This document shows positions 37,976 through 50,437 of a DNA stretch of 64,000 nt, one piece after another; position 1 is the first letter of the stretch, and each line of letters begins with the position of its first letter. The notes below the pieces were generated by a model that worked only from the letters and a program-made list of their open reading frames with translations, was not told where the DNA came from and ran no database searches. Position numbers and translations under genes: made by a program. Origin of the DNA: an uncultured Bacteroidota bacterium (GTDB lineage: Bacteria; Bacteroidota; Bacteroidia; Bacteroidales; UBA12481); NCBI GenBank assembly GCA_942493265.1, contig OW818688.1, positions 1,218,994-1,282,993 on the forward strand, given 5' to 3'.

Positions 37976-38425
37976 ATGACAAAAAGTAAAGTTACGCTGC
38001 ACCGGGTTTTTACAGCAAGCCCGGAAAAAGTATTCAGGGCATTTACTGATGCAGATGCAATGGCCTCGTGGTTGCCACCTTACGGTTTTGTTTGCAAAGT
38101 GCATAGCATGGATGTAAAAATTGGCGGGACCTATAAAATGTCTTTTACCAATTTTACTACGGGTAGCAGCCAGTCATTTGGTGGCGAATATCTGGAAATT
38201 ATACCCAATGAACTGTTGACGTATTCCGACCGGTTTGACGACCCGAATCTTCCAGGTCAAATGATTACAAAAATTGAGTTGCGGAAAGTTTTAGTTGGCA
38301 CAGAGCTTATTGCAACTCAGGAGGGAATACCAGACGTAATACCGATCGAAATGTGTTATTTGGGTTGGCAGGAATCGTTGGACAAATTAAAACGATTAGT
38401 TGAACCTAATATACCAGATGCGTGA
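37976..38425 (+). CDS. SRPBCC / AHSA1-domain protein
   Basis: LHRVFTASPEKVFRAFTDADAMASWLPPYGF...GGTYKMSF...GGEYLEIIPNELLTYS is typical of Aha1/START-like SRPBCC proteins. Confidence 0.8.
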   Translation: MTKSKVTLHRVFTASPEKVFRAFTDADAMASWLPPYGFVCKVHSMDVKIGGTYKMSFTNFTTGSSQSFGGEYLEIIPNELLTYSDRFDDPNLPGQMITKIELRKVLVGTELIATQEGIPDVIPIEMCYLGWQESLDKLKRLVEPNIPDA

Positions 38426-38449
38426 ATTTTTAAGAAAAGAATAAAAAAT

Positions 38450-38869
38450 ATGGCAAAGCAAATATTTATCAATATAGCAGTGAAAGACCTTCAGAAATCG
38501 ATGGACTTTTATACTGCATTGGGATTTTCAAATAATCCGCAATTTTCCGACGACTCCGGCAAATGTATGGTTTGGAGTGACGATATCTTTGTCATGATTA
38601 TGACGCACGAAAAATTTAAATCCTTTGCAACCAAGCCCGTCGCAGATACAAAATCAAATTTAGCCGGGATCTTTTCATTAGCTGTCGACAGTCTTGAGGA
38701 AGTAAACAGCATTATGACCAATGGACTGAAATCAGGTGGAACCGAGCCAAGCGAAATGAAAGATTATGGATTTATGCAACAGCGTACTATAGAAGATTTT
38801 GACGGTCATACCTGGGAGATTTTCTATATGGATATGACTAAATTTCCAACAGAACCCTCAAACGGGTAA
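38450..38869 (+). CDS. VOC (glyoxalase/bleomycin-resistance fold) family protein
   Basis: FINIAVKDLQKSMDFYTALGF...DFDGHTWEIFYMD is typical of VOC-family small proteins. Confidence 0.8.
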   Translation: MAKQIFINIAVKDLQKSMDFYTALGFSNNPQFSDDSGKCMVWSDDIFVMIMTHEKFKSFATKPVADTKSNLAGIFSLAVDSLEEVNSIMTNGLKSGGTEPSEMKDYGFMQQRTIEDFDGHTWEIFYMDMTKFPTEPSNG

Positions 38870-40773: not shown

Positions 40774-41001
40774 TTACCTGAGTTTTAATTGATATTTTTT
40801 GGTCAGGCCATCCAGCATCAAGGTGGCGATTGAAGCACTCATGCAGTAGTCGGGGATGCCCAGCGGCTTTCCGGTCATCGAATCGTAATGTTCGCTGATC
40901 CCGTTTCGGATGGCATTTTCAACCATTCCGAAAGCCAGACTTCCGGATGTTTGGATAAATCTCCGTCTTGAAAAGCCCATTTTCTTAATATCCTCCATCA
41001 T
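40774..41001 (-). pseudogene. 75-aa relic: Tat signal fused directly to the C-terminal tail of an (alpha/alpha)6 glycosidase
   Basis: MGFSRRRFIQTSGSLAFG (twin-arginine signal) is followed immediately by VENAIRNGISEHYDSMTGKPLGIPDYCMSASIATLMLDGL. That segment resembles the extreme C-terminus of GH63/GH37-like toroid enzymes, and the catalytic body is missing. Confidence 0.5.
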
Positions 41002-41090
41002 TACCGGTGAGATTGGCTGACTCTCTGATTTCTTACCTCAACCCCTACTGCACCGGGTTAAAGGTATATGCCTGAATGGAATTCCTTGCT

Positions 41091-41121
41091 TACCAAATTG
41101 ATAGAATTGGATACTAACTTG
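41091..41121 (-). promoter_or_regulatory. Conserved 31-bp operon-leader motif, copy 3 (upstream of the relic ORF and heparinase-like lyase)
   Basis: Minus-sense CAAGTTAGTAtccaattctatCAATTTGGTA, 90 nt upstream of the ATG at 41001. Confidence 0.6.
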
Positions 41122-41236
41122 CCTGTCCTGACCAGATGAAGCCAGCAAGTGCCAAAATAGTGTATAAGGTTGCAAAACAACTATCGTACAATTACAATTA
41201 TTTGGCATAACATAACAGACAATATTTATTTAATAC

Positions 41237-42424
41237 ATGATCAACAGAATTTGTTTCAATCGGATAGCAGCGATAATAATGGCCTTCAGCCTGGCAGCCT
41301 GTCAGACCCGGGAGGATTCAAAAAGCTGGACCTTTGTCAGCATGCCGGACTTTATTAATGTGGATTGCGATTATCCGCAGCCCAACTGGGAGGATGCGCT
41401 GTCCTGTATACTCGGGTCCGTCAAAAAGGAGAATCCCGATTTTCTTATTGTCGGCGGAGACATGGTCATGGGGGAATGGGACGGAACGGACTGGAACGAC
41501 CGGGATTCCATCAGCAAATATGCAGAACGTTATTATCCGGCATGGATAAACCGGATGAAAGACCATGGACTTAAATACTATACTGCGATCGGCGATCATG
41601 AAATCGGGGATAATGACTGGCCCACTGAAAAGCGGCTCCATGCAGTAAAAATCTATAAAGAGGCATTTGCCAGATACTTCAGAATGCCTGAAAATGGTCC
41701 TCCCCACATGCAGGGATCTGCATATTGGTGGAGGCACAGGAATGTTCTCTTTGTTTCGCTGGACCTTTTTGAAGAGGGTCAAAGTCGTAATGGATTAATA
41801 AAGATTGGGGTAACCGGCGAGCAGCTGAGCTGGTTCAGGAAAATTCTGTCAGAAAATGCTGATGCAGATCACCGGATTGTGGTGGGACACGCCCCTATTC
41901 TCGGACCTGTCAGAAAATGGAGCTCCAGTGCACTGATGGTCGACGGAGGCCGGGAATCCGAACTCTGGCAAACCATGAAAGAATACCAGGTGGATGCATA
42001 TTTATGCGGGGAGGTTCATGCCATAACCTGCACGGAGCGGGATGGTATCATGCAGATTGCGCATGGAGGATTGATCGGATATAATACCCGGACCAACTAC
42101 CTGGTGGCTCATGTGAGCAAATCGAAAATCGAAATCGAAATCAAGGAGATCGATCTGTTACCAACCGGTGAACATCTGTGGCAGCCCCAATCCAACCGGC
42201 CGCTCGATCATGTGAGCATTTCGGCGGAGAATAAGGCACGGGGGTTTGTACCAGTCGGGACCCTGACCATCAATAAAAAAGGGGGCAAAGAGTTTACTAA
42301 CCGTAAAGGCTACTTTCTTAAAGAGTATGAGACCAGTGATGAAACGGCCGTACCGATATTCAAAAAAGACAATAGCAGGGGACTGCCCACGGAGTTGCCC
42401 CGGATAACCTTAAAAAGTTCGTAA
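41237..42424 (+). CDS. Calcineurin-like metallophosphoesterase lipoprotein
   Basis: Lipobox AFSLAAC. Metallophosphoesterase motifs VGGDMVMGEW, GDHEIGDNDW, VVGHAPILGP and CGEVHA. Confidence 0.8.
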   Translation: MINRICFNRIAAIIMAFSLAACQTREDSKSWTFVSMPDFINVDCDYPQPNWEDALSCILGSVKKENPDFLIVGGDMVMGEWDGTDWNDRDSISKYAERYYPAWINRMKDHGLKYYTAIGDHEIGDNDWPTEKRLHAVKIYKEAFARYFRMPENGPPHMQGSAYWWRHRNVLFVSLDLFEEGQSRNGLIKIGVTGEQLSWFRKILSENADADHRIVVGHAPILGPVRKWSSSALMVDGGRESELWQTMKEYQVDAYLCGEVHAITCTERDGIMQIAHGGLIGYNTRTNYLVAHVSKSKIEIEIKEIDLLPTGEHLWQPQSNRPLDHVSISAENKARGFVPVGTLTINKKGGKEFTNRKGYFLKEYETSDETAVPIFKKDNSRGLPTELPRITLKSS

Positions 42425-42459
42425 CCGGAAAGGCGAGGCGCCATGGGTCAGGTAACCTT

Positions 42460-43341
42460 TTAATCATTTTCTTCATAGTAATAGGAATAGTCAATCCCTT
42501 TCATAAACATTTCACGGTCATTTATTTGGGAAGTGAGGGCATTATTCAATAGAGTCTTCAGAGTATTGTTTTTTGTTGGACTTAGCATCATTGCATTCAT
42601 ATAGTCTCGTTTACTTATTTTACTCCAATCAATACATTTTTTAAGGCGTTTTTTTAGCATCAAATCCAACCATATTCGTGTGCTTCTGCCGTTACCTTCC
42701 ATAAAAGGGTGTGCAATGTTCATTTCAATATATTTGTTTACGATATCGTCAAATGAAGTTTCGGGCATTGCTTCTATTTGCTTTAATGTGTCACCTAAAA
42801 ATCGTGATACAGCAAATTGAAAACCACCTTTGGAAATGTTTTTTTGTCTTATTTGGCCAGCAAAATCATATAATCCACCAAATAAATAAGCGTGAATTTG
42901 TTGTAACCCTTTGGTTGTCCCAACTTCTATACTGTCGATAAATGAACTGTCAAATAGCGCATACGCTTTTGTCTTGCTTTTGCCGTCAATACTTTCATTA
43001 CTATATGTAAACCATTCAATAAATCGGTTTGCTTTTTTACTTGGAAATTCTTTCCCCAAAGCGATAATGCCATTGTAATCTAACATATCGGTTAAATATC
43101 GTTTACCGTCATTTGCTAAAAGTTTCAGTTGGGTAGTTGCACTAACCAACTCATTTTTTTCTTTTTTCAATTTGGCCTTAAGATATTTCCAATAATTACG
43201 AGTCTTTGTATAGTCGTTTTGGTCGGTAAGCACTGCAACAATATCCAACACCGAAAACCACCACTTGGAATTTTCTTCATCCCAAACAGCTCGTACTTCG
43301 CGGTCATCAAAGAAACGAATGGATATTTTTGTGTTACTCAT
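42460..43341 (-). CDS. Fic-domain protein with N-terminal Bro-N-like domain
   Basis: Fic motif [14 protein letters not shown]. The N-terminus [29 protein letters not shown] resembles the Bro-N / antirepressor N-terminal fold. Confidence 0.85.
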
Positions 43342-43426
43342 TATTAAATCTCTTCTGTTTTACAGTTATTTTTCACGAAGGTATTGTAATTTTTGTTTTT
43401 AAGTAATAGTCTTGGGCTCTTCTCAG

Positions 43427-43574
43427 AACGAACGCTAACTGACGGAACTACATGCTGTTGACGACTGCGGGCGGTTTTCCTGTCGAGCCGTACTGCCGCT
43501 GTTGCGGGCAACATGGCTTGTTGTCGGTACGGAAACGGCAATTGACATATAGTTTTTGTTAATGGCTGACGTTC
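43427..43574 (-). repeat. attC-like ~148-bp imperfect-palindrome repeat I (abuts the stop codon of the GyrI-like gene)
   Basis: Minus-sense it starts ...ccaTTAAC next to the stop and ends GTTAGCG. It is GC-rich within an AT-rich island. It has internal stems with bulged bases (e.g. TGC(C)CGC-AACA-GCGGCA). The core 43457-43512 aligns by eye at ~65-70% with 44117-44172. Confidence 0.45.
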
Positions 43575-44060
43575 TCATTTCGTCTGTATTGGTATCCATA
43601 TTTCTTCTTCCGAATCAGGGTCGGCATTTTTGTATTTGTCTCCTAATACTTCAAAATGTGGTCTGTCGTCCAACATGTAAACCGAATTTGGAAGCCAAAC
43701 GCCAAAAATATACTGGAAGATACTATTGTCGGTGCTTGAACCTTTATAGTCGAAAACAGCGTAAAGTCCGGCTGTCAGTGTAAACGTTTCCATCTCGTTT
43801 GGCACCTGCTCAAAGTTAGTTACTTCAACTGCCGCCCACTTTTCAAAGTCATTTGTTGGTTTAAAGTCTGCAAAATGTGTTGGCTTATAAATTGCCATTG
43901 AAATAAAATCATTTGTCAGGTTGTTGGTTATTTCTTTACGTCTGGGCATAAAGCTTCTCCACAATTCTCCTGTCTTGTTGTCAGATAAACTCATTGTTAG
44001 TCGTTTACCTACTAGTTTCTTCTCATTTGATATCTCAATTCTTGGTTCCATTTTGCTCAT
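43575..44060 (-). CDS. GyrI-like small-molecule-binding domain protein
   Basis: 161 aa. IEISNEKKLVGKRLTMS...GLYAVFDYKGS...HFEVLGDKY is typical of GyrI/SbmC-like effector-binding domains. Confidence 0.75.
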   Translation of the reverse strand: MSKMEPRIEISNEKKLVGKRLTMSLSDNKTGELWRSFMPRRKEITNNLTNDFISMAIYKPTHFADFKPTNDFEKWAAVEVTNFEQVPNEMETFTLTAGLYAVFDYKGSSTDNSIFQYIFGVWLPNSVYMLDDRPHFEVLGDKYKNADPDSEEEIWIPIQTK

Positions 44061-44084
44061 ATTGTCTTGGTAGTGTGTCTTTTT

Positions 44085-44229
44085 ACGCTTGCCGTTAACG
44101 CTTGGCGGTATGAAAAGTTGGGGATTGCGGGCTTCGTCCCTGTCTGCCGTTACTAAAGCCGATGCTGGGCAGAATGCTTAACATAACCATTGAACCCCCA
44201 ATGTTTTATACTTGATGTTAGCCGCTGGC
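44085..44229 (-). repeat. attC-like ~145-bp imperfect-palindrome repeat II (4 nt from the stop codon of the isochorismatase-family gene)
   Basis: Terminal inverted segments GCTTGCCGTTAAC (44087-44099) and GTTAGCCGCTGGC (44217-44229) give 9 WC + 2 GU of 13. Minus-sense ends are ggCTAAC ... GTTAACG. The core is related to repeat I. Confidence 0.45.
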
Positions 44230-44233
44230 ATTT

Positions 44234-44731
44234 TTATTTTTGATCTAACAAGTTATTCAAATTATTTATTTTACTGCCATTTTTTTCGTAATACTTCAGC
44301 ATTTCGTCAATTTTCCTTTTATCATAACTTGTGATACAATCTGATAAGACTGTAACTTTGTAGTTTTTCTTGCACATATTAAATACGGTTGATTTCACGC
44401 AGGCAATGGCGTCTGCTCCTGTAATGTAAAATTCGCTAATCTCATTTTTCTTGATAAAGTCTGCAAAATCTTCGCTGGTCAATGCGTTGCCTTTGGATTT
44501 TTCAAAAATGTTTGTGGAAACTAATTTCATGTCCGAAACTAATTCAGACCCACGAGTATTTGGTTTGAAAGTCCTTGTGCCATCAGATAAGTTATAATGC
44601 CTTATGTAAACGACATGAATTTCATTTTCCACTGCCCAATCTATTGCCCGATTAACATTGTCAATGATTTCTTTGTAGTTTTTAGTAATGTCATTTTGAA
44701 TGTCAATTACCACTAAAGACTTATTCTGCAT
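44234..44731 (-). CDS. Isochorismatase-family cysteine hydrolase
   Basis: LVVIDIQNDITKNY (catalytic Asp region) and ITGADAIACVKSTV (catalytic Cys). Confidence 0.8.
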   Translation of the reverse strand: MQNKSLVVIDIQNDITKNYKEIIDNVNRAIDWAVENEIHVVYIRHYNLSDGTRTFKPNTRGSELVSDMKLVSTNIFEKSKGNALTSEDFADFIKKNEISEFYITGADAIACVKSTVFNMCKKNYKVTVLSDCITSYDKRKIDEMLKYYEKNGSKINNLNNLLDQK

Positions 44732-44911
44732 GGGATTTCCTTCTTTTATTTTTATGTTTTGGTCAAATTTTCTATTTCATTGTCCATCGCACTGTCGCTT
44801 ATTCGCTTGCGGCTTACGTGTCGCTATCCGCATTGCGTATATCTGAGATTTATCTGAATCCGGTTTATGTTATTGTAAATCATATTTATATCATGTCGTA
44901 AAAGTTTCTTT

Positions 44912-45382
44912 TTATTCTACTTTGCACGTTGGATTACACTTCACTTCAAAATTTACAGAGTTGGCTATATAGCAAATTTCGTGAGCTTTGTGATGTAGCT
45001 CGATTGCCTTTTCAACCATACTTTCATCGGCTACAAAGAAAATTGGATTCAGGCTAACTTCGCTGAAACTTCCGCCACCACTTTCCTTTTCAATCATTAT
45101 GCCAGTGGCATTGTCGGTGTAAGAGGTAATTAAAATTCCTTCTATTGCACATAGATACAAGTAAGAAAGCAGGTGGCATGATGATATGGCGGTAACCAAT
45201 AAATCCTCAGGATTCAATTTTGTTTTATCGCCAACAGCGGCATTATCTGTGGTAAGAAATAATTCTGGTTTTCCTGGTATGGTAACGGTGTGGCTACGAT
45301 CGTAGGTTCGTACATTTTTTGTTCCTTCACCTTTATTCCCGGTCCATACCGCAGTTAGCTTGTAGTTATGTTCGTGTGTCAT
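44912..45382 (-). CDS. OsmC/Ohr-family protein
   Basis: PEDLLVTAISSCHLLSYLYLCA and ...HHKAHEICYIANSV are OsmC-like blocks. The start at MTHEHNYK (45382) is preferred; the ORF opens at 45430. Confidence 0.75.
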   Translation of the reverse strand: MTHEHNYKLTAVWTGNKGEGTKNVRTYDRSHTVTIPGKPELFLTTDNAAVGDKTKLNPEDLLVTAISSCHLLSYLYLCAIEGILITSYTDNATGIMIEKESGGGSFSEVSLNPIFFVADESMVEKAIELHHKAHEICYIANSVNFEVKCNPTCKVE

Positions 45383-45476
45383 TATCGTTTTTGTTTCTTT
45401 ACATTCGCTTGAAAAAAATACCAGTAGCAACAGATAAAAAGCATCTTCATTTTAAAGTCTGGATTTACGGATAGGT

Positions 45477-46046
45477 TCAAACCCTGAGCGATCCCCGGAA
45501 ACCCCTAACTCCATAGTAGGAATCCGCGCCGTTGTGGTAAACGAAAACATGGTTGTACCGGCGATCGCAGAAAATGGCTCCCCCAAGTTTCCTGATTTCA
45601 GTAGGTGTTTTCACCCAGCTTGAGGTTTTGGTATCGAAATTACCCAGTTTCTGCAACTCCCGGTATTGTTCTTCCGTTAGAAGGTCAATTCCCATGGCAG
45701 CCGCCATATCCAGTGCGTTGTTTGCCGGTTTGTATTCCTTCCTGGATTCCAGCGCCTCCCGGTCATAGCAGATGCTCCGGCGGCTCTTGGGACTTTCGGG
45801 AGCACAATCATAAAAGATAAATTCACCCGTACGGGCATCCATATCAACCACATCCGGTTCACCGCCTGTTGTTTCCATTTCATTGAGCGACCAGAGTTTT
45901 TCAGTATTTGCTTCCAGCCTGGCCTGTATTCCGGACCATTCCATACCCGGATGGCGGTTACTGTTTTTTCCGAAGCGGGCTTTCAGGGTGCCGAGCAGTT
46001 CTTCGCGCTGTTCCGGCGACAATTCTTTTTTGTTTTCCATGGCCAT
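45477..46046 (-). CDS. DUF4256-like protein
   Basis: LKARFGKNSNRHPGMEWSGIQARLEANTEKLWSLNEMETTGGEPDVV matches my recollection of the DUF4256 family. No functional motif. Confidence 0.6.
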   Translation of the reverse strand: MAMENKKELSPEQREELLGTLKARFGKNSNRHPGMEWSGIQARLEANTEKLWSLNEMETTGGEPDVVDMDARTGEFIFYDCAPESPKSRRSICYDREALESRKEYKPANNALDMAAAMGIDLLTEEQYRELQKLGNFDTKTSSWVKTPTEIRKLGGAIFCDRRYNHVFVYHNGADSYYGVRGFRGSLRV

Positions 46047-46148
46047 TTTTTGTTTTATGAATTCATTACCAGTTAAACGCTTTCAGGACGATTTTGATTT
46101 GGGCTAGTTGTTCAGCTGATAACTTTGGCCGGCTTTGATGTCGGGTAA

Positions 46149-46598
46149 TCACATTTTTTTATACTCTATTATTTTTATAACATCTTCAATCTGTTCAATT
46201 CTTGTCATTTTAATTACCAGTGGAATCAATTTACCAATATTTTTACTTTGACTAAATTCCTCTTTAATAGTCTTGTCAATATTAAGTTCGGTGATTCCTG
46301 AACCATTTTTTTCTGTAAAATAGAACCCCAATTTGAAATGCATTTTCCAAATTGATAACCAAAACACTGTTTTCTTTTTATAACAAACCTTACATAACCA
46401 GGATTTCCCATCATTATAATATTTCCATTCCGGAGTTAATCCCAAATCAGAATCTGTAATAGTTTCAATAAACTGATTAAAGACTTTATAAATATCCTCT
46501 CCAAGTGCATTTTCCAGAACTTCCTTTGATGGATATATACTGGAATCTTTTAACAAAATTTCTTCCATTTGTAAATCGTTGTAAATGAACCAACCCAA
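46149..46598 (-). CDS. DUF3788-like protein
   Basis: PEWKYYNDGKSWLCKVCYKKKTVFWLSIWKMHFKLGFYFTEKN resembles the DUF3788 family. Alternative start MEEILLK at 46568. Confidence 0.55.
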   Translation of the reverse strand: MGWFIYNDLQMEEILLKDSSIYPSKEVLENALGEDIYKVFNQFIETITDSDLGLTPEWKYYNDGKSWLCKVCYKKKTVFWLSIWKMHFKLGFYFTEKNGSGITELNIDKTIKEEFSQSKNIGKLIPLVIKMTRIEQIEDVIKIIEYKKM

Positions 46599-46641
46599 AT
46601 TTACATTTTCTTTTCTGTAACATCAATGGCTTCCTGATTGC

Positions 46642-48969
46642 CTAGATATTTAACCATTTCTGATTCTCTTTCAATTCCCAGATTTTATCACCGTAAACCA
46701 CCCGGCAGGGGAGACCTGCCCTGGAATGGATCACCGCACTGGTCAGTTGCCCGTTGTTCCAGCTCATTTCCACCTCAAATCCGCCACGGGCGCAAAGGCC
46801 GGTGACCTTGCCTGCAGGCCATGCTTTGGGCAGTGCGGGCAGCAGATGGATGGATCCCGTGTGGCTTTGCACCAGCATCTCGCAGAAGCCGGCTGTAGCA
46901 CCAAAATTGCCATCAATCTGGAACGGCGGATGCGAGTCGAAGAGGTTCGGATAAACTCCGCCGCCGCTGTCGCCGTAGATGGTTTCTGTTCCGTGGACCA
47001 CGTTGAGCAGGCTGCGCAGCATGGTGTAGGCGTGATCGCCGTCCCACAGCCTGGCCCAGAAATTGATTTTCCAGGCGCGGCTCCATCCGGTACTTTTGTC
47101 GCCGCGGGCCTGCAGGGAAACGCGGGCGGCTTCGGCCAGTTCAGGGGTGGTTGCCCGGGTGATCTGCCGTCCGGGATACAGGGCGAACAGATGGGAAACA
47201 TGGCGATGAGTATCCTTTGGATCGTCCTTGTCTTCTTCCCACTCCTGCAATTGTCCCCAGTGCCCGACCTTCGGCTTGAGCAGCTTGTCGCGCAGTCCGG
47301 CAATGTGATCCCGGAATTCCCTGTCATCACCCAGCACATCTGCGGCTTCAATCGTGTTGGTGAAGAGGTCGAAGATGATCTCCTGGTCGTATGTCACACC
47401 TTCTTCGGCGGGACCGTGCTCGGGCGACCATCCATCGGGTGTGACGAGCGTGCCGTCAGGCCGGCGTTTCAGGTGATCGTCCCAGAACTGGCACACTTCT
47501 TTAAGAACGGGATAGGCAGTTGTGCGGAGATACTCCTTATCCCGGCCAAAAGCGAAATGCTCCCACAAATGTTGTGCATACCAGGCACTCCCGGGCGGAT
47601 TCCATTTCCAATACGAAACACCACACGCGTTGTTCATCGTTTGCACGGTCCAGCCCCTGACTTTGCCATATTTTCGTTGGGTGTTTTTCCTGCTGACCTC
47701 CCGGATGCTCGCAGTATAGTCGATAAACGGCTTGTGGCACTCAGCGAGATTGGCCGGTTCAGCTGGCCAGTAGTTCATTTCGACGTTGATATTTGAGTGG
47801 TAGTCACCGGCCCAGGCGGGTTCGTTGCTGTCGTTCCATACCCCCTGGAGATTGGCGGGCAAAGATCCCGGGCGCGAGCAACCAATCAGCAGGTAGCGTC
47901 CATACTGGCAGAACAGGGCTTCGAGATCCGGGTCGGCCATGGAGTTTTTTGTGTAGTCATCCAGCCTCGCCAGCGTGGTTCGGGCCAGCTGGCTGGGAGC
48001 CGTGGTTCCCACCTCAAGGGAAAAACGGTGAAACAACGATTGATAATCTTTCACATGCCGGTCCTGAAGCCTGGCTGCACTCTGCCTGGCTGCGGCATCC
48101 ACCCGCCTGGTTACGGCGGCATGGGGATGAATGCCCAGCCACTGTTTGGTGTGATCCTGAATGAAGTTTGTGCCTGCCCCGAGTATCAGCGTCAGGCTGT
48201 CGCACTGGTCGAAGGCCAGGCTGCTGGTGGGTGTGGCAATATCCCATGGGTTTTTGGCTGATGCATCGTCTTTCACGGCGATGGCGCCGTTTTTGTTCAG
48301 CACGAGCAATTGGGCTTCATATTCAAACCCGTTTTCCAGCCTGCCCACCGAGCTGATCCTGTTGCCTTCGGCGGCAATCCGCGCCCTGTGCATGTCGGCA
48401 AGCTGAACGCGGCCGGTATAGGCCGCGGGCTTGTTCGCCGTAAGATGGACCACAATAACACCGTCAGGATGACTGGCGAAGGCAGTGCGTTGATAGCGCA
48501 CCCCATTGTAATCGTAGGTTACCTGATGAACGGCGCGATTGATGTCGAGCTCCTGCCGGTAGCGGGTCACCCCGGAGAAATCATGACCAAGATGGATGAA
48601 GATATCACCAAACGCCTGATAGGCGCCCAGGTCCTGACCTTCATCATCCAATCCCTCAACAGCCATGCGGGTTCCCGACCAGAGACTGATCTCATTGAAC
48701 TGTATCCGCTCGATCGCGGTGCCGCCAAAGAGCATCGCCCCCATGGGCCCGTTGCCGATCGGATAGGCCTCGGTCATCCAGGCTTCTGCCGGCCGGTCGG
48801 ACCAAAGGCACAATTTTCCGGAGGCTTTCGCCCCGACAGGGATTTCACCCGCACGGGCAGTCATTCCGGTTAGCGGACTAATGCCCAGAGCGGCCGTTGC
48901 CATGCCGGCGGAATACAAAAAGTGACGCCGGGAGATGGGGTTTTCCTGTTTGTGTGTTTTTTTAGTCAT
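46642..48969 (-). CDS. GH95 alpha-L-fucosidase (Tat signal)
   Basis: [17 protein letters not shown] signal. [33 protein letters not shown] and [21 protein letters not shown] are hallmark GH95 blocks. Confidence 0.9.
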
Positions 48970-49141: not shown

Positions 49142-50437
49142 ATGGATAAGAATAAATTATTCGGCATACTAAACGACTGGAACTACTGGGATAAGCCGGT
49201 TACGGAGTTTTTCCCGAGGGAGGAGTACCAGAAGAAAATCAATTCATACCTGGCAACCGGTGAGGTTATCGTACTGAAAGGTATCCGCAGGTCAGGAAAA
49301 TCAACACTGCTAATCAACCATATACGGCATCTCACTGGCACGGGAGTGGATAAAAAGGAGACACTCTTCGTGAATTTTGAAGACCCCCGTTTCGACGGAG
49401 TACTGAACAGCGAACTACTGGAACAAATTTTTGAGGTTTACAGGGAATTTGTCAACAACGAAACAAAACCTCATATTTTTCTGGATGAAGTTCAGCATGT
49501 TGCTCAATGGGAAAAATGGGTACTCTCCGGTTATGAGCTAAAAAGGGCGCATTTTTATGTTACCGGCTCATCTTCAAAACTCCTTAGCCGAGAATTTGGC
49601 ACTGCCCTGAGCGGACGGTTTCTTTCTATCACTGTTTTCCCGCTTAGTTTCGGGGAGTACCTCCGGTTTAAGCTTCAGCCAGCACCGGATAAAATTTCGA
49701 TCATCACACAGAAATTAGTTTATAAAATAGCTTTCAATGAGTACATCAAAGGGGGCGGTTTCCCTAAAGTATGTTCTCTTGACGAGGATTTGAGGCGGCA
49801 GGAAATCATTATGTATTTCGAAACCATCATTCTTAAAGATATTGTTGCCCGCTACAACCTCAAAAACTACGACAGCGTTAAAAAAGTAGCACTTTATCTA
49901 ATTTCTAACATTGGAAAACCCTTTAACCTGAACAAGGTAAGAGTTTCACTTACACTTTCGTACGACCTGGCAGACAAGTATTTCGAATACCTGAAAGATA
50001 CTTTTCTGTTGTTTGAAGTATTTCAATACGACCACTCAATTAACCGTCAATTTGCCAATCACCGTAAAGTTTATTGCATCGACAATGGAGTATTGACTTA
50101 TACTTCTTTCAGGGTTTCAGAAGATTATGGCCGCTACCTTGAAAACCTTGTTTTCATTGAATTGCTGCGACAGGGGCATGAGGTATATTTCCACCAGGGG
50201 AAAAAAGAATGTGATTTTATAATCAAGAAAGGGCTAACGATCACTCAAGCCATACAGGTATGCCGCACCTTGCAGGATGAAGAAACCAAAAAGCGGGAAC
50301 TGGAAGGATTAAAAGAAGCTCTTGAAACATATGGGCTGATTGAAGGAGTGATACTTACTGAAGACGAAGAATACGAAATATCTTTCCAGGGACGCCGGAT
50401 CATCGTTCAACCGGTTTGGAAATGGTTGCTGGAATAG
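49142..50437 (+). CDS. AAA+ ATPase (COG1373 / DUF4143 type), paralog 2
   Basis: Walker A LKGIRRSGKST and Walker B IFLDEVQ. The C-terminal ECDFII...AIQVC segment is a divergent nuclease-like tail. Confidence 0.85.
   Translation: MDKNKLFGILNDWNYWDKPVTEFFPREEYQKKINSYLATGEVIVLKGIRRSGKSTLLINHIRHLTGTGVDKKETLFVNFEDPRFDGVLNSELLEQIFEVYREFVNNETKPHIFLDEVQHVAQWEKWVLSGYELKRAHFYVTGSSSKLLSREFGTALSGRFLSITVFPLSFGEYLRFKLQPAPDKISIITQKLVYKIAFNEYIKGGGFPKVCSLDEDLRRQEIIMYFETIILKDIVARYNLKNYDSVKKVALYLISNIGKPFNLNKVRVSLTLSYDLADKYFEYLKDTFLLFEVFQYDHSINRQFANHRKVYCIDNGVLTYTSFRVSEDYGRYLENLVFIELLRQGHEVYFHQGKKECDFIIKKGLTITQAIQVCRTLQDEETKKRELEGLKEALETYGLIEGVILTEDEEYEISFQGRRIIVQPVWKWLLE

Follow-up and report, generated by a model that had tools for sequence, protein, structure and literature searches.

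Six small genes lie one behind the other on the minus strand of the 64,000-nt stretch of Bacteroidota DNA that was analyzed here (the window), between a glycoside hydrolase family 95 (GH95) gene and a convergent phosphoesterase gene. Their spacers raise the question of whether these genes are mobile gene cassettes, and, if they are, to which recombination system they belong. An earlier reading of the sequence (the original prediction) had taken two GC-rich spacer elements for attC sites and the whole island for an integron cassette array without an integrase. Our analysis indicates that the window probably holds a decayed orphan cassette array, yet one that belongs to a non-canonical, integron-like system associated with a recombinase of the Xer type. 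We give about even chances to a broader reading, namely that Bacteroidota possess a second, widespread kind of integron, of which the window is an orphan array. It would consist of a recombinase that lacks the I2 insertion and carries an extra N-terminal domain, a conserved attI-like site, and sequence-conserved hairpins of about 131 nt that are exchanged at G|TT. All coordinates are positions within the window, and the gene sense of the array is the minus strand.

The spacer elements and their family

All six co-oriented genes were present as originally described, as judged from the list of open reading frames (ORFs) and from Pfam matches. The two GC-rich elements, here named A and B (Table 1), are real. 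An nhmmer profile that was built from 109 genome copies, with the window copies left out, matched 43420-43575 (A, E=7e-21) and 44078-44237 (B, E=1e-34) and had no third match in the 64 kb. A covariance model (CM) that was run on the window with its filters off found no element besides A and B; the CM scores of these two are not independent, because both are in the training set of the model. A and B are 131-132 nt long, lie 660 nt apart, and each follows a minus-strand ORF; the window thus contains at least two close sites that are co-oriented with short ORFs, with no intI gene nearby. The predicted termini, ...(C/T)TAAC and GTTA(G/A)CG, were also correct, and in each element they match RYYYAAC/GTTRRRY in part only. 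Two other details had to be revised. The conserved part of the elements begins 11-15 nt past the stop codon instead of 0-5 nt, and the identity of A and B is about 53% in a nearly gapless alignment, instead of 65-70% in the cores. A repeat search of the window failed to pair the two, their divergence being too great. They have the core GACAGGn6GCCCGCAnTCnnCAAC in common, which occurs nowhere else in the window, and they represent distinct subtypes within one family. Copies with 90-92% identity to A were found in about 12 loci of metagenome-assembled genomes (MAGs), with the homology stopping at TAAC (43561) and GTT (43437), and B is 87-89% identical to elements in the loci L032, L060, and L094. 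The putative crossover points lie between G43439 and T43438 in A and between G44099 and T44098 in B. An Rfam 15 search of positions 42000-47000, at the gathering threshold and at E<=10, returned nothing relevant.

As the original prediction had anticipated, further copies exist outside the window. The core, with 19 specified bases taken from A and B, was used for an exact scan of 185,579 species-representative genomes, from which blocks of 8 kb were returned. It was found in at least 120 genome loci, compared with about 4 expected by chance according to our own estimate, and nearly all of these loci belong to Bacteroidota (Bacteroidales, Prolixibacteraceae, Marinilabiliales, and Flavobacteriaceae; mostly MAGs and a few isolates). 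Most matches assigned to other phyla come from short MAG contigs, and therefore no claim across phyla is made. In the following, related loci are referred to by L numbers, which comprise the genome loci from the core scan, 80 metagenome loci (L121-L200), and relatives of the window genes (L203-L206).

In the genome loci listed, the profile detected 226 copies, which form arrays of up to 7 with a median spacing of successive copies of about 1.3 kb, and no locus is of mixed orientation. A co-oriented ORF precedes 146 of the 155 elements that have an upstream gene, and the ORF ends a median of 2.5 nt before the match. One co-oriented ORF is the commonest content between two copies. The original prediction had named repetitive extragenic palindromic (REP) sequences or miniature inverted-repeat transposable elements (MITEs) as the alternative, which this strict placement and orientation make very unlikely. 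Sampled cargo genes encode HTH, glyoxalase, MarR, GNAT, Fic/Doc, DUF1801, AHSA1, alpha/beta hydrolase, DUF3800, and HEPN proteins. Elements of about 90% identity occur in MAGs assigned to different Bacteroidota families, and some genomes contain several distant arrays (OY781971.1 at 0.56 and 1.30 Mb; CAWAHF010000004.1 at 2.49 and 4.25 Mb).

The predicted stems of imperfect palindromes could be confirmed for the family, but not for the single elements. Folding of A and B alone as DNA gave z-scores of -2.0 to +0.5 over both strands, which is not significant, and the structure emerged only via covariation across the family. For this analysis, a set of 121 copies was used, none of which is more than 88% identical to another. 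The terminal AAC and GTT are 94-98% conserved, and the adjoining position is a pyrimidine on one side and a purine on the other. The positions beyond are unconstrained, with 33-48% Watson-Crick pairing; such weak outer pairing would follow if the next cassette contributes the outer half of the 3' box. The end boxes are separated by 2 nt on one arm and by about 5 nt on the other from a stem of 17-19 bp. Compensatory changes were found at all 17 pairs of the imperfect 17-bp stem, and RNAalifold, unaided, recovered 16 stem pairs, all 16 of them with compensatory changes. In the full structure, 93% of the cells are paired, compared with 73% after shuffling and 26-41% with slid partners, and the covariation score is 0.462 versus 0.108 in shuffles (0 of 500 shuffles reached 0.462). 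Two conserved A.C mismatches on the gene-sense strand, present in 99 and 119 of the 121 copies, are G.T wobbles on the complementary strand, and the bottom strand would therefore fold better. According to the non-pair marks in the CM alignments, 3 stem pairs are broken in A and 4 in B. Three of those in B are in its L box, because the 5' arm (CAAGT) and the 3' arm (ACCGCC) belong to different subtypes. The interior of about 75 nt (alignment columns 51-127; 43536-43462 and 44194-44120 in the window) is strongly conserved in sequence across genera. It holds two direct CCCGCA motifs about 46 nt apart.

The position of the exchange can be read from cassettes that occur in different contexts, the homology of which breaks at the 3' GTT. 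L002 and L096 (99.6% identical over 905 nt) part directly after CCGTT, as do L102 and L107, whereas the homologies of L050 with L086 and of the window with L092 begin at GTT. In all four comparisons, the cassette boundary lies at G|TT of the core site. The ORF-plus-element units, AAC/GTT ends, covarying stem, and G|TT breakpoints of the related loci thus bear out the original prediction of a gene-cassette array with attC-like sites in its spacers.

The linked recombinase gene and the site behind it

The window itself contains no integrase, as had been predicted. Neither IntI1 nor the array-linked recombinase described below detected a tyrosine recombinase in the 64 kb by tblastn (best E=0.9 for the array-linked query), and the attI-like motif TATAAACGA|GTT does not occur in the window. 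A search of the window and of 200 related loci (about 1.3 Mb) with a provisional IntI1 sequence as query revealed no classical IntI. Of a complete platform of recombinase, attI-like site, and array, the window has the array only.

The related loci were more informative. All-against-all clustering of the large ORFs in the genome loci (120 examined) revealed no dominant neighbour family. The largest protein cluster is a Xer-like tyrosine recombinase, and in 5 loci its gene immediately precedes the first cassette and shares its strand. When ten integrase-sized minus-strand ORFs were picked, nine appeared unrelated to recombination by eye and the tenth (in L040) was a Xer-like recombinase; one of the few such ORFs that were then scanned was the reverse transcriptase of a group II intron.

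The 80 metagenome loci were chosen by protein similarity to the recombinase alone. In these loci, the CM found 62 matches, all of them on the strand of the recombinase gene. Fifty-eight lie downstream and 4 upstream of it, despite the fact that twice as much upstream sequence was searched. Where at least 1.5 kb of downstream sequence was available, 21 of 25 loci have an element match. The contig ends within 400 nt past the recombinase gene in 36 of the 80 loci, compared with 9 of 80 on the upstream side. The repeats of the arrays therefore interrupt assemblies, and MAGs probably under-represent such arrays.

A motif, TAYAHDNNA|GTT, was found in 62 of 64 loci at a median distance of 100 nt past the recombinase stop codon, with TATAAACGA|GTT as its commonest form. 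In front of it lie three copies of another motif, of about 11 bp, two of them inverted and one direct; the copies agree within a locus and vary from locus to locus. In four pairs of loci, the sequences are the same as far as GTTA and unrelated from there on. The leader GTTAGCGGTCATGCTATGACGACAGTGCAAA was found attached to an element end in L077 and to the attI-like site in L085. By its sequence, the site after the recombinase gene looks like an attI site whose first cassette can be exchanged. A recurrent first "cassette", GTTGAACTAAACCGCC followed by a GC-rich hairpin, was observed behind an element end in L009 and behind the attI-like site in L128, L138, and L148.

The recombinase is 30% identical to the provisional IntI1 sequence, with gaps that total 41 amino acids (aa) at the IntI-specific insertion, and in 90 of 90 long alignments it falls 33-44 aa short of IntI1 in the I2 region. 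The scores of NCBIfam TIGR02249 are 202-218 bits, which is under its cutoff of 265. A cognate integrase with an I2 domain was not found in the related loci. The nearest solved relatives by sequence are XerA (PDB 5hxy and 4a8e) and VchIntIA (PDB 2a3v), with 146, 133, and 122 bits, and a Foldseek search with the predicted structure gave E values of about 2e-15 for both XerA and VchIntIA. The predicted structure has an extra N-terminal beta-beta-alpha-beta-beta-alpha domain of about 90 aa. More than 7,900 clusters at 90% identity, mainly from Bacteroidota, make up this very large family, whose members are annotated as XerD (JGI) or as "site-specific tyrosine recombinase/integron integrase". We have not classified the system as a classical integron, because the linked recombinase is devoid of the additional domain in every related locus examined.

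These features suggest the following mechanism. Each unit of the window would once have been a circularisable cassette, which consisted of a short 5' leader TTRnnn, one ORF, and an imperfect-palindrome site of about 131 nt ending in G. The cassettes would have been joined head to tail by strand exchange between G and TT of the GTT box, which is the crossover position of integrons. In the family, arrays would start beside a gene that encodes a Xer/IntI-like tyrosine recombinase and points towards the cassettes, and a double-stranded attI-like site would be formed by the three repeats of about 11 bp and the following TATAAACGA|GTT behind that gene. The recombinase most likely pairs this attI-like site with a folded strand of the cassette site, probably the bottom strand.

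Probable decay of the array in the window

Only two of the six cassettes in the window retain a recognisable element, both with broken pairs, and the element of the Fic gene is lost, in agreement with the predicted decay. In the proposed history, two sites survived in a damaged form, three were reduced to fragments, and the last was deleted. Given the missing recombinase and attI-like site and the damaged or lost sites, the array would now be fixed, and its six genes would have to be expressed from their own signals.

Table 1. Array, flanking genes, and spacer features in the window
Feature	Position	Strand	Evidence and remarks
GH95 alpha-L-fucosidase flank, upstream in gene sense	46642-48969	-	Pfam Glyco_hydro_95_cat E=1e-159; GC 57%
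Candidate left junction GTTACAG, 21 nt past GH95 stop	46615-46621	-	Read from sequence; speculative, without statistical support
Cassette 1 ORF, DUF3788	46149-46568	-	PF12663 E=1e-27; GC 28%
Spacer, possible internally deleted remnant	46047-46148	-	R''-like CAGCTGAACAAC 46118-46107, GTC 46089-46087, box AAAGCGTT 46083-46076; by eye
Cassette 2 ORF, DUF4256	45477-46046	-	PF14066 E=6e-91; GC 51%
Spacer, possible remnant	45383-45476	-	CCAGACTTTAAA, then GTA 45421-45419, then box CAAGCGAA 45411-45404; by eye
Cassette 3 ORF, OsmC-like	44912-45382	-	PF02566 E=6e-12
Spacer, degenerate 3' end plus cassette leader	44732-44911	-	GTAAGCC 44817-44811, then CAAGCGAATAAGCGACAGTGC
Cassette 4 ORF, isochorismatase family	44234-44731	-	PF00857 E=1e-27; GC 32%
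Element B, attC-like	44093-44223	-	R'' GGCTAAC 44223-44217 to R' GTTAACG 44099-44093; nhmmer E=1e-34; CM 139.4 bits
Cassette 5 ORF, GyrI-like / Cass2	43575-44060	-	Top Pfam match PF14526 Cass2 E=4e-21
Element A, attC-like	43433-43564	-	R'' CATTAAC 43564-43558 to R' GTTAGCG 43439-43433; nhmmer E=7e-21; CM 95.5 bits
Cassette 6 ORF, Fic plus Bro-N	42460-43341	-	Cassette begins T43438; own element gone
Array end, 35-nt gap before convergent phosphoesterase gene	42425-42459		Junction recurs in relative contig L203
Metallophosphoesterase flank, convergent	41237-42424	+	PF00149; identical protein on an NCBI contig

The array directly follows the GH95 gene in gene sense. Its genes have GC contents of 28-40%, with the exception of DUF4256 at 51%, compared with 49-57% in the flanks, and the island is thus more AT-rich than its surroundings, as predicted. 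The best Pfam match of the GyrI-like gene, Cass2, carries the Pfam name "Integron-associated effector binding protein", and a homologue of the OsmC-like gene, 49% identical, sits directly behind an element in L064.

In the three weak spacers, the original prediction had noted a short shared box, (C/A)AAGCG(T/A)(T/A). It was indeed present in all three (44802-44809, 45404-45411, and 46076-46083). Among the 5' leaders of family cassettes, this box is a frequent variant and stands 7-8 nt past GTT (as in L100, L151, L190, and L040); in each weak spacer, GTA or GTC takes the place of that GTT, at the fitting distance. Two of the three spacers have a CCAG...AAC-like motif further upstream, and a hand count gave about 26 matching positions out of 34 between the spacer 44732-44911 and the R' box plus leader of L040 (GTTAGGCACAAGCGGAGAAAACGACAGTGC). 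From these similarities, read by eye and without statistical support, the three weak spacers may be internally deleted and point-mutated remnants of elements. A match of 39 nt between the GH95-proximal spacer and L141 was dismissed, because it lies within an ORF in L141.

The Fic cassette shows the loss of an element most directly. From the GTT of A to 4 nt past its stop codon, it is 85% identical at the nucleotide level to positions 5393-6375 of L092, where an intact element follows the Fic gene; in the window there is none. The element after Fic in L092 (6378-6536) ends with ...AACC GAT in place of the GTT of the family. L092 has a single cassette directly behind a host gene (OmpA-like by eye), with the left junction ...TATCTA|GTTAGCG, which fits insertion at a non-GTT secondary site.

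Synteny between the GH95 and phosphoesterase genes, which had been proposed as a check, was informative on one side. The close relative L203 is 92% identical at the nucleotide level over 40924-42534 and has the same Fic/phosphoesterase junction. Therefore, at least that end of the array was inherited and not freshly inserted. The GH95 side yielded no information, since GH95 homologues with 83% amino acid identity have unrelated neighbours.

Several further observations concern the surroundings of the array. The 75-aa ORF at 40774-41001 is the leftover of a glycoside hydrolase gene with a breakpoint at 40923/40924; L203 has an intact 448-aa MGH1-like/trehalase gene at this place, of which the window is short of about 1.1 kb. 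The GH95 gene has a GC content of 57% inside a region of about 45-50%, and its best homologues are 80-86% identical. Lower-ranked homologues with organism names (72-83%) include proteins of Verrucomicrobiota, Planctomycetota, and Lentisphaerae MAGs, which suggests that this carbohydrate-active enzyme has spread horizontally. Two ATPase genes of the AAA_14 plus DUF4143 family are present, at 49142-50437, directly beside the GH95 gene, and at 62198-63601; the family also occurs near the Fic homologue in L204. On the plus strand, two small low-GC genes at 37976-38869 encode an AHSA1/SRPBCC protein (42% GC) and a glyoxalase (39% GC), Pfam families that also occur as cassettes in related arrays. 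The CM matches in the flanks of this pair have E values of about 9 only, and the pair may be another mini-array that has fully decayed.

Related arrays contain other mobile elements. Reverse-transcriptase genes of group II introns lie within arrays in L033 (2610-4545), L077 (4288-6219), L025, L040, and L047; in L033 and L077, the intron splits the 3' arm of an element after ...CATA| and is oriented as the cassettes are. In L023 (1600-3518), an array is interrupted between two of its elements by genes for an IS91-family transposase (by eye) and for a small tyrosine recombinase.

Competing explanations and known systems

The explanation closest to the original prediction is a classical cluster of attC sites lacking integron integrases (CALIN), in which the elements would be ordinary attC sites, a canonical IntI with its gene elsewhere in the genome would act on them, and the Xer-like gene would be incidental or cargo. 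The RYYYAAC/GTTRRRY-like ends, the imperfect palindrome of 131-132 nt, the G|TT crossover, and the one ORF per unit are all compatible with it, and in L191 elements are found upstream of the recombinase gene, too. Integrons have been reported in Bacteroidota (PMC8618304), and a preprint describes integron integrases as able to insert cassettes outside att sites (bioRxiv 10.1101/2022.09.11.507474). We nevertheless regard a classical CALIN as unlikely. No IntI turned up in the window or in the 200 element-rich loci, whereas the matches in the metagenome loci are, with the four upstream exceptions, downstream of and co-oriented with the Xer-like gene, whose own conserved junction site exchanges cassettes. 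The elements also depart from canonical attC sites in the spacing of the R and L boxes and in the conserved interior. Moreover, IntegronFinder 2.0 reports almost no integrons in Bacteroidetes (PMC9024848), yet the element family is common there. The classical part of the original prediction could thus not be upheld.

It is also improbable that the recombinase is a housekeeping single-Xer dimer resolvase with an adjacent dif site, and that the arrays hijack Xer/dif in the manner of integrative mobile elements exploiting Xer (IMEX) or of pdif modules. In favour of this reading, XerA (5hxy) is the top sequence relative with a solved structure, the recombinase family is of great size and carries the JGI name XerD, the genes of XerS and XerH adjoin their site, and XerCD recombines the folded single-stranded attP of phage CTX. 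However, some genomes have several distant arrays, the junction site is conserved on its left side only and varies on the right with the cassette, unlike dif, and the predicted extra N-terminal domain and the equal structural similarity to VchIntIA and XerA also speak against a resolvase. The pdif modules themselves, with 28-bp XerC/XerD sites in alternating orientation, were rejected, because the sites found here are hairpins of about 131 nt in direct orientation. Very little, finally, remains of the possibility that A and B are generic repeats (REP, MITE, or terminator-like) between ordinary accessory genes and that no cassette mechanism exists. The unexceptional folding energies of A and B alone, the presence of only two copies in 64 kb, and the conservation of the Fic end of the array in a relative would agree with it, but it is largely refuted by the strict co-orientation and placement 3' of ORFs, the arrays with about one ORF per unit, the modular exchange with breakpoints at GTT, the covariation of all 17 stem pairs, and the linkage to the recombinase gene and the junction site.

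Several points weigh against the decayed orphan array of a Xer-linked system that we favour. The link between recombinase and elements is positional, and the action of the Xer-like enzyme on the sites is putative. The genome scan was seeded with a pattern from A and B, and the recombinase alignment behind the metagenome scan was drawn from element-bearing loci. The comparison with IntI1 was based on a provisional sequence. RNAalifold found no consensus fold for the interior of about 75 nt in the 121-copy alignment, which leaves its conservation unexplained. The three weak spacers gained no support from relaxed nhmmer, an R'-plus-leader hidden Markov model, low-stringency blastn, or the unfiltered CM. 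The frequency of their box across the window is at chance level (17 found, 17.0 expected), and its enrichment in gene sense in about 890 nt of array spacers (5 versus about 0.1 expected) is circular, because the pattern was defined from those sites. Lastly, the Fic homologues in L204-L206 have the ORF alone in common, with no leader or element; therefore, not every copy of the Fic gene is a cassette.

The literature was searched with incomplete coverage, and no description of the element family or of the platform was found; the integron-like system is apparently undescribed. In the prevailing view, integrons are defined by IntI, the I2 helix being described as the innovation and key step that enabled recombination of folded single strands (PMC7790495), and the I2/additional domain as essential for integron function (PMC8138268). 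A cassette system that follows the logic of integrons, with a platform recombinase, a junction site, hairpin cassettes, and G|TT exchange, appears to be common without I2 in Bacteroidota genomes and metagenomes. If this is true, the capture of hairpin cassettes would need no IntI-specific insertion, the definition of integron-like gene capture would become wider, and nature would offer a test of what I2 is for. The reported near-absence of integrons in Bacteroidota would be a detection artefact, and a large unannotated pool of mobile accessory genes for toxins, defence, and stress would exist in a phylum that is important in gut and environmental communities. For the window genome alone, the consequence is modest: an AT-rich island of six accessory genes would be explained as a fossil array.

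As in classical integrons, the cassettes are co-oriented and mostly contain a single ORF, and behind each lies an imperfect palindrome with the termini ...AAC and GTT.... The G|TT crossover and a tyrosine recombinase with an adjacent site and a variable first cassette are shared as well. Orphan arrays scattered in genomes and accessory cargo (Fic/Doc, GNAT, glyoxalase, HTH, MarR, HEPN, DUF3800) are also common to both. In contrast to classical integrons, the linked recombinase is devoid of the I2/additional domain of about 40 aa, has the predicted N-terminal domain of about 90 aa, and is co-oriented with the cassettes. It thus differs from IntI (VchIntIA) in the missing I2 insertion and from XerA in the additional N-terminal domain. 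Unlike classical attC sites, the elements have R-L spacers of 2 and 5 nt, a stem of 17-19 bp, and an interior of about 75 nt that is conserved in sequence across genera, and they have two conserved A.C/G.T positions in place of the extrahelical G and T of classical sites.

The target of classical group IIC-attC introns is the bottom strand of attC (PMC3001079). The introns in L033 and L077 likewise interrupt the element itself; however, they share the orientation of the cassettes. In sedentary chromosomal integrons, such as those with the Vibrio cholerae repeats, attC sites of about 120-130 nt are alike in sequence and are served by a classical IntI. The elements described here resemble them in being long and mutually similar, but the homogeneity of the Vibrio cholerae repeats is found within one genome or genus, whereas here an identity of about 90% extends across Bacteroidota families. 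The IMEX elements and the pdif modules of Acinetobacter have 28-bp dif-like sites and use the housekeeping XerC/D of the host. There, too, discrete gene modules are moved by a Xer-type enzyme that has no I2 helix, but arrays of co-oriented ORFs with 130-nt hairpins beside a dedicated recombinase gene are not known. XerCD is also known to recombine the folded single-stranded attP hairpin of the CTX phage with a double-stranded site, and this is a precedent for the proposed action of a Xer-type enzyme on a hairpin.

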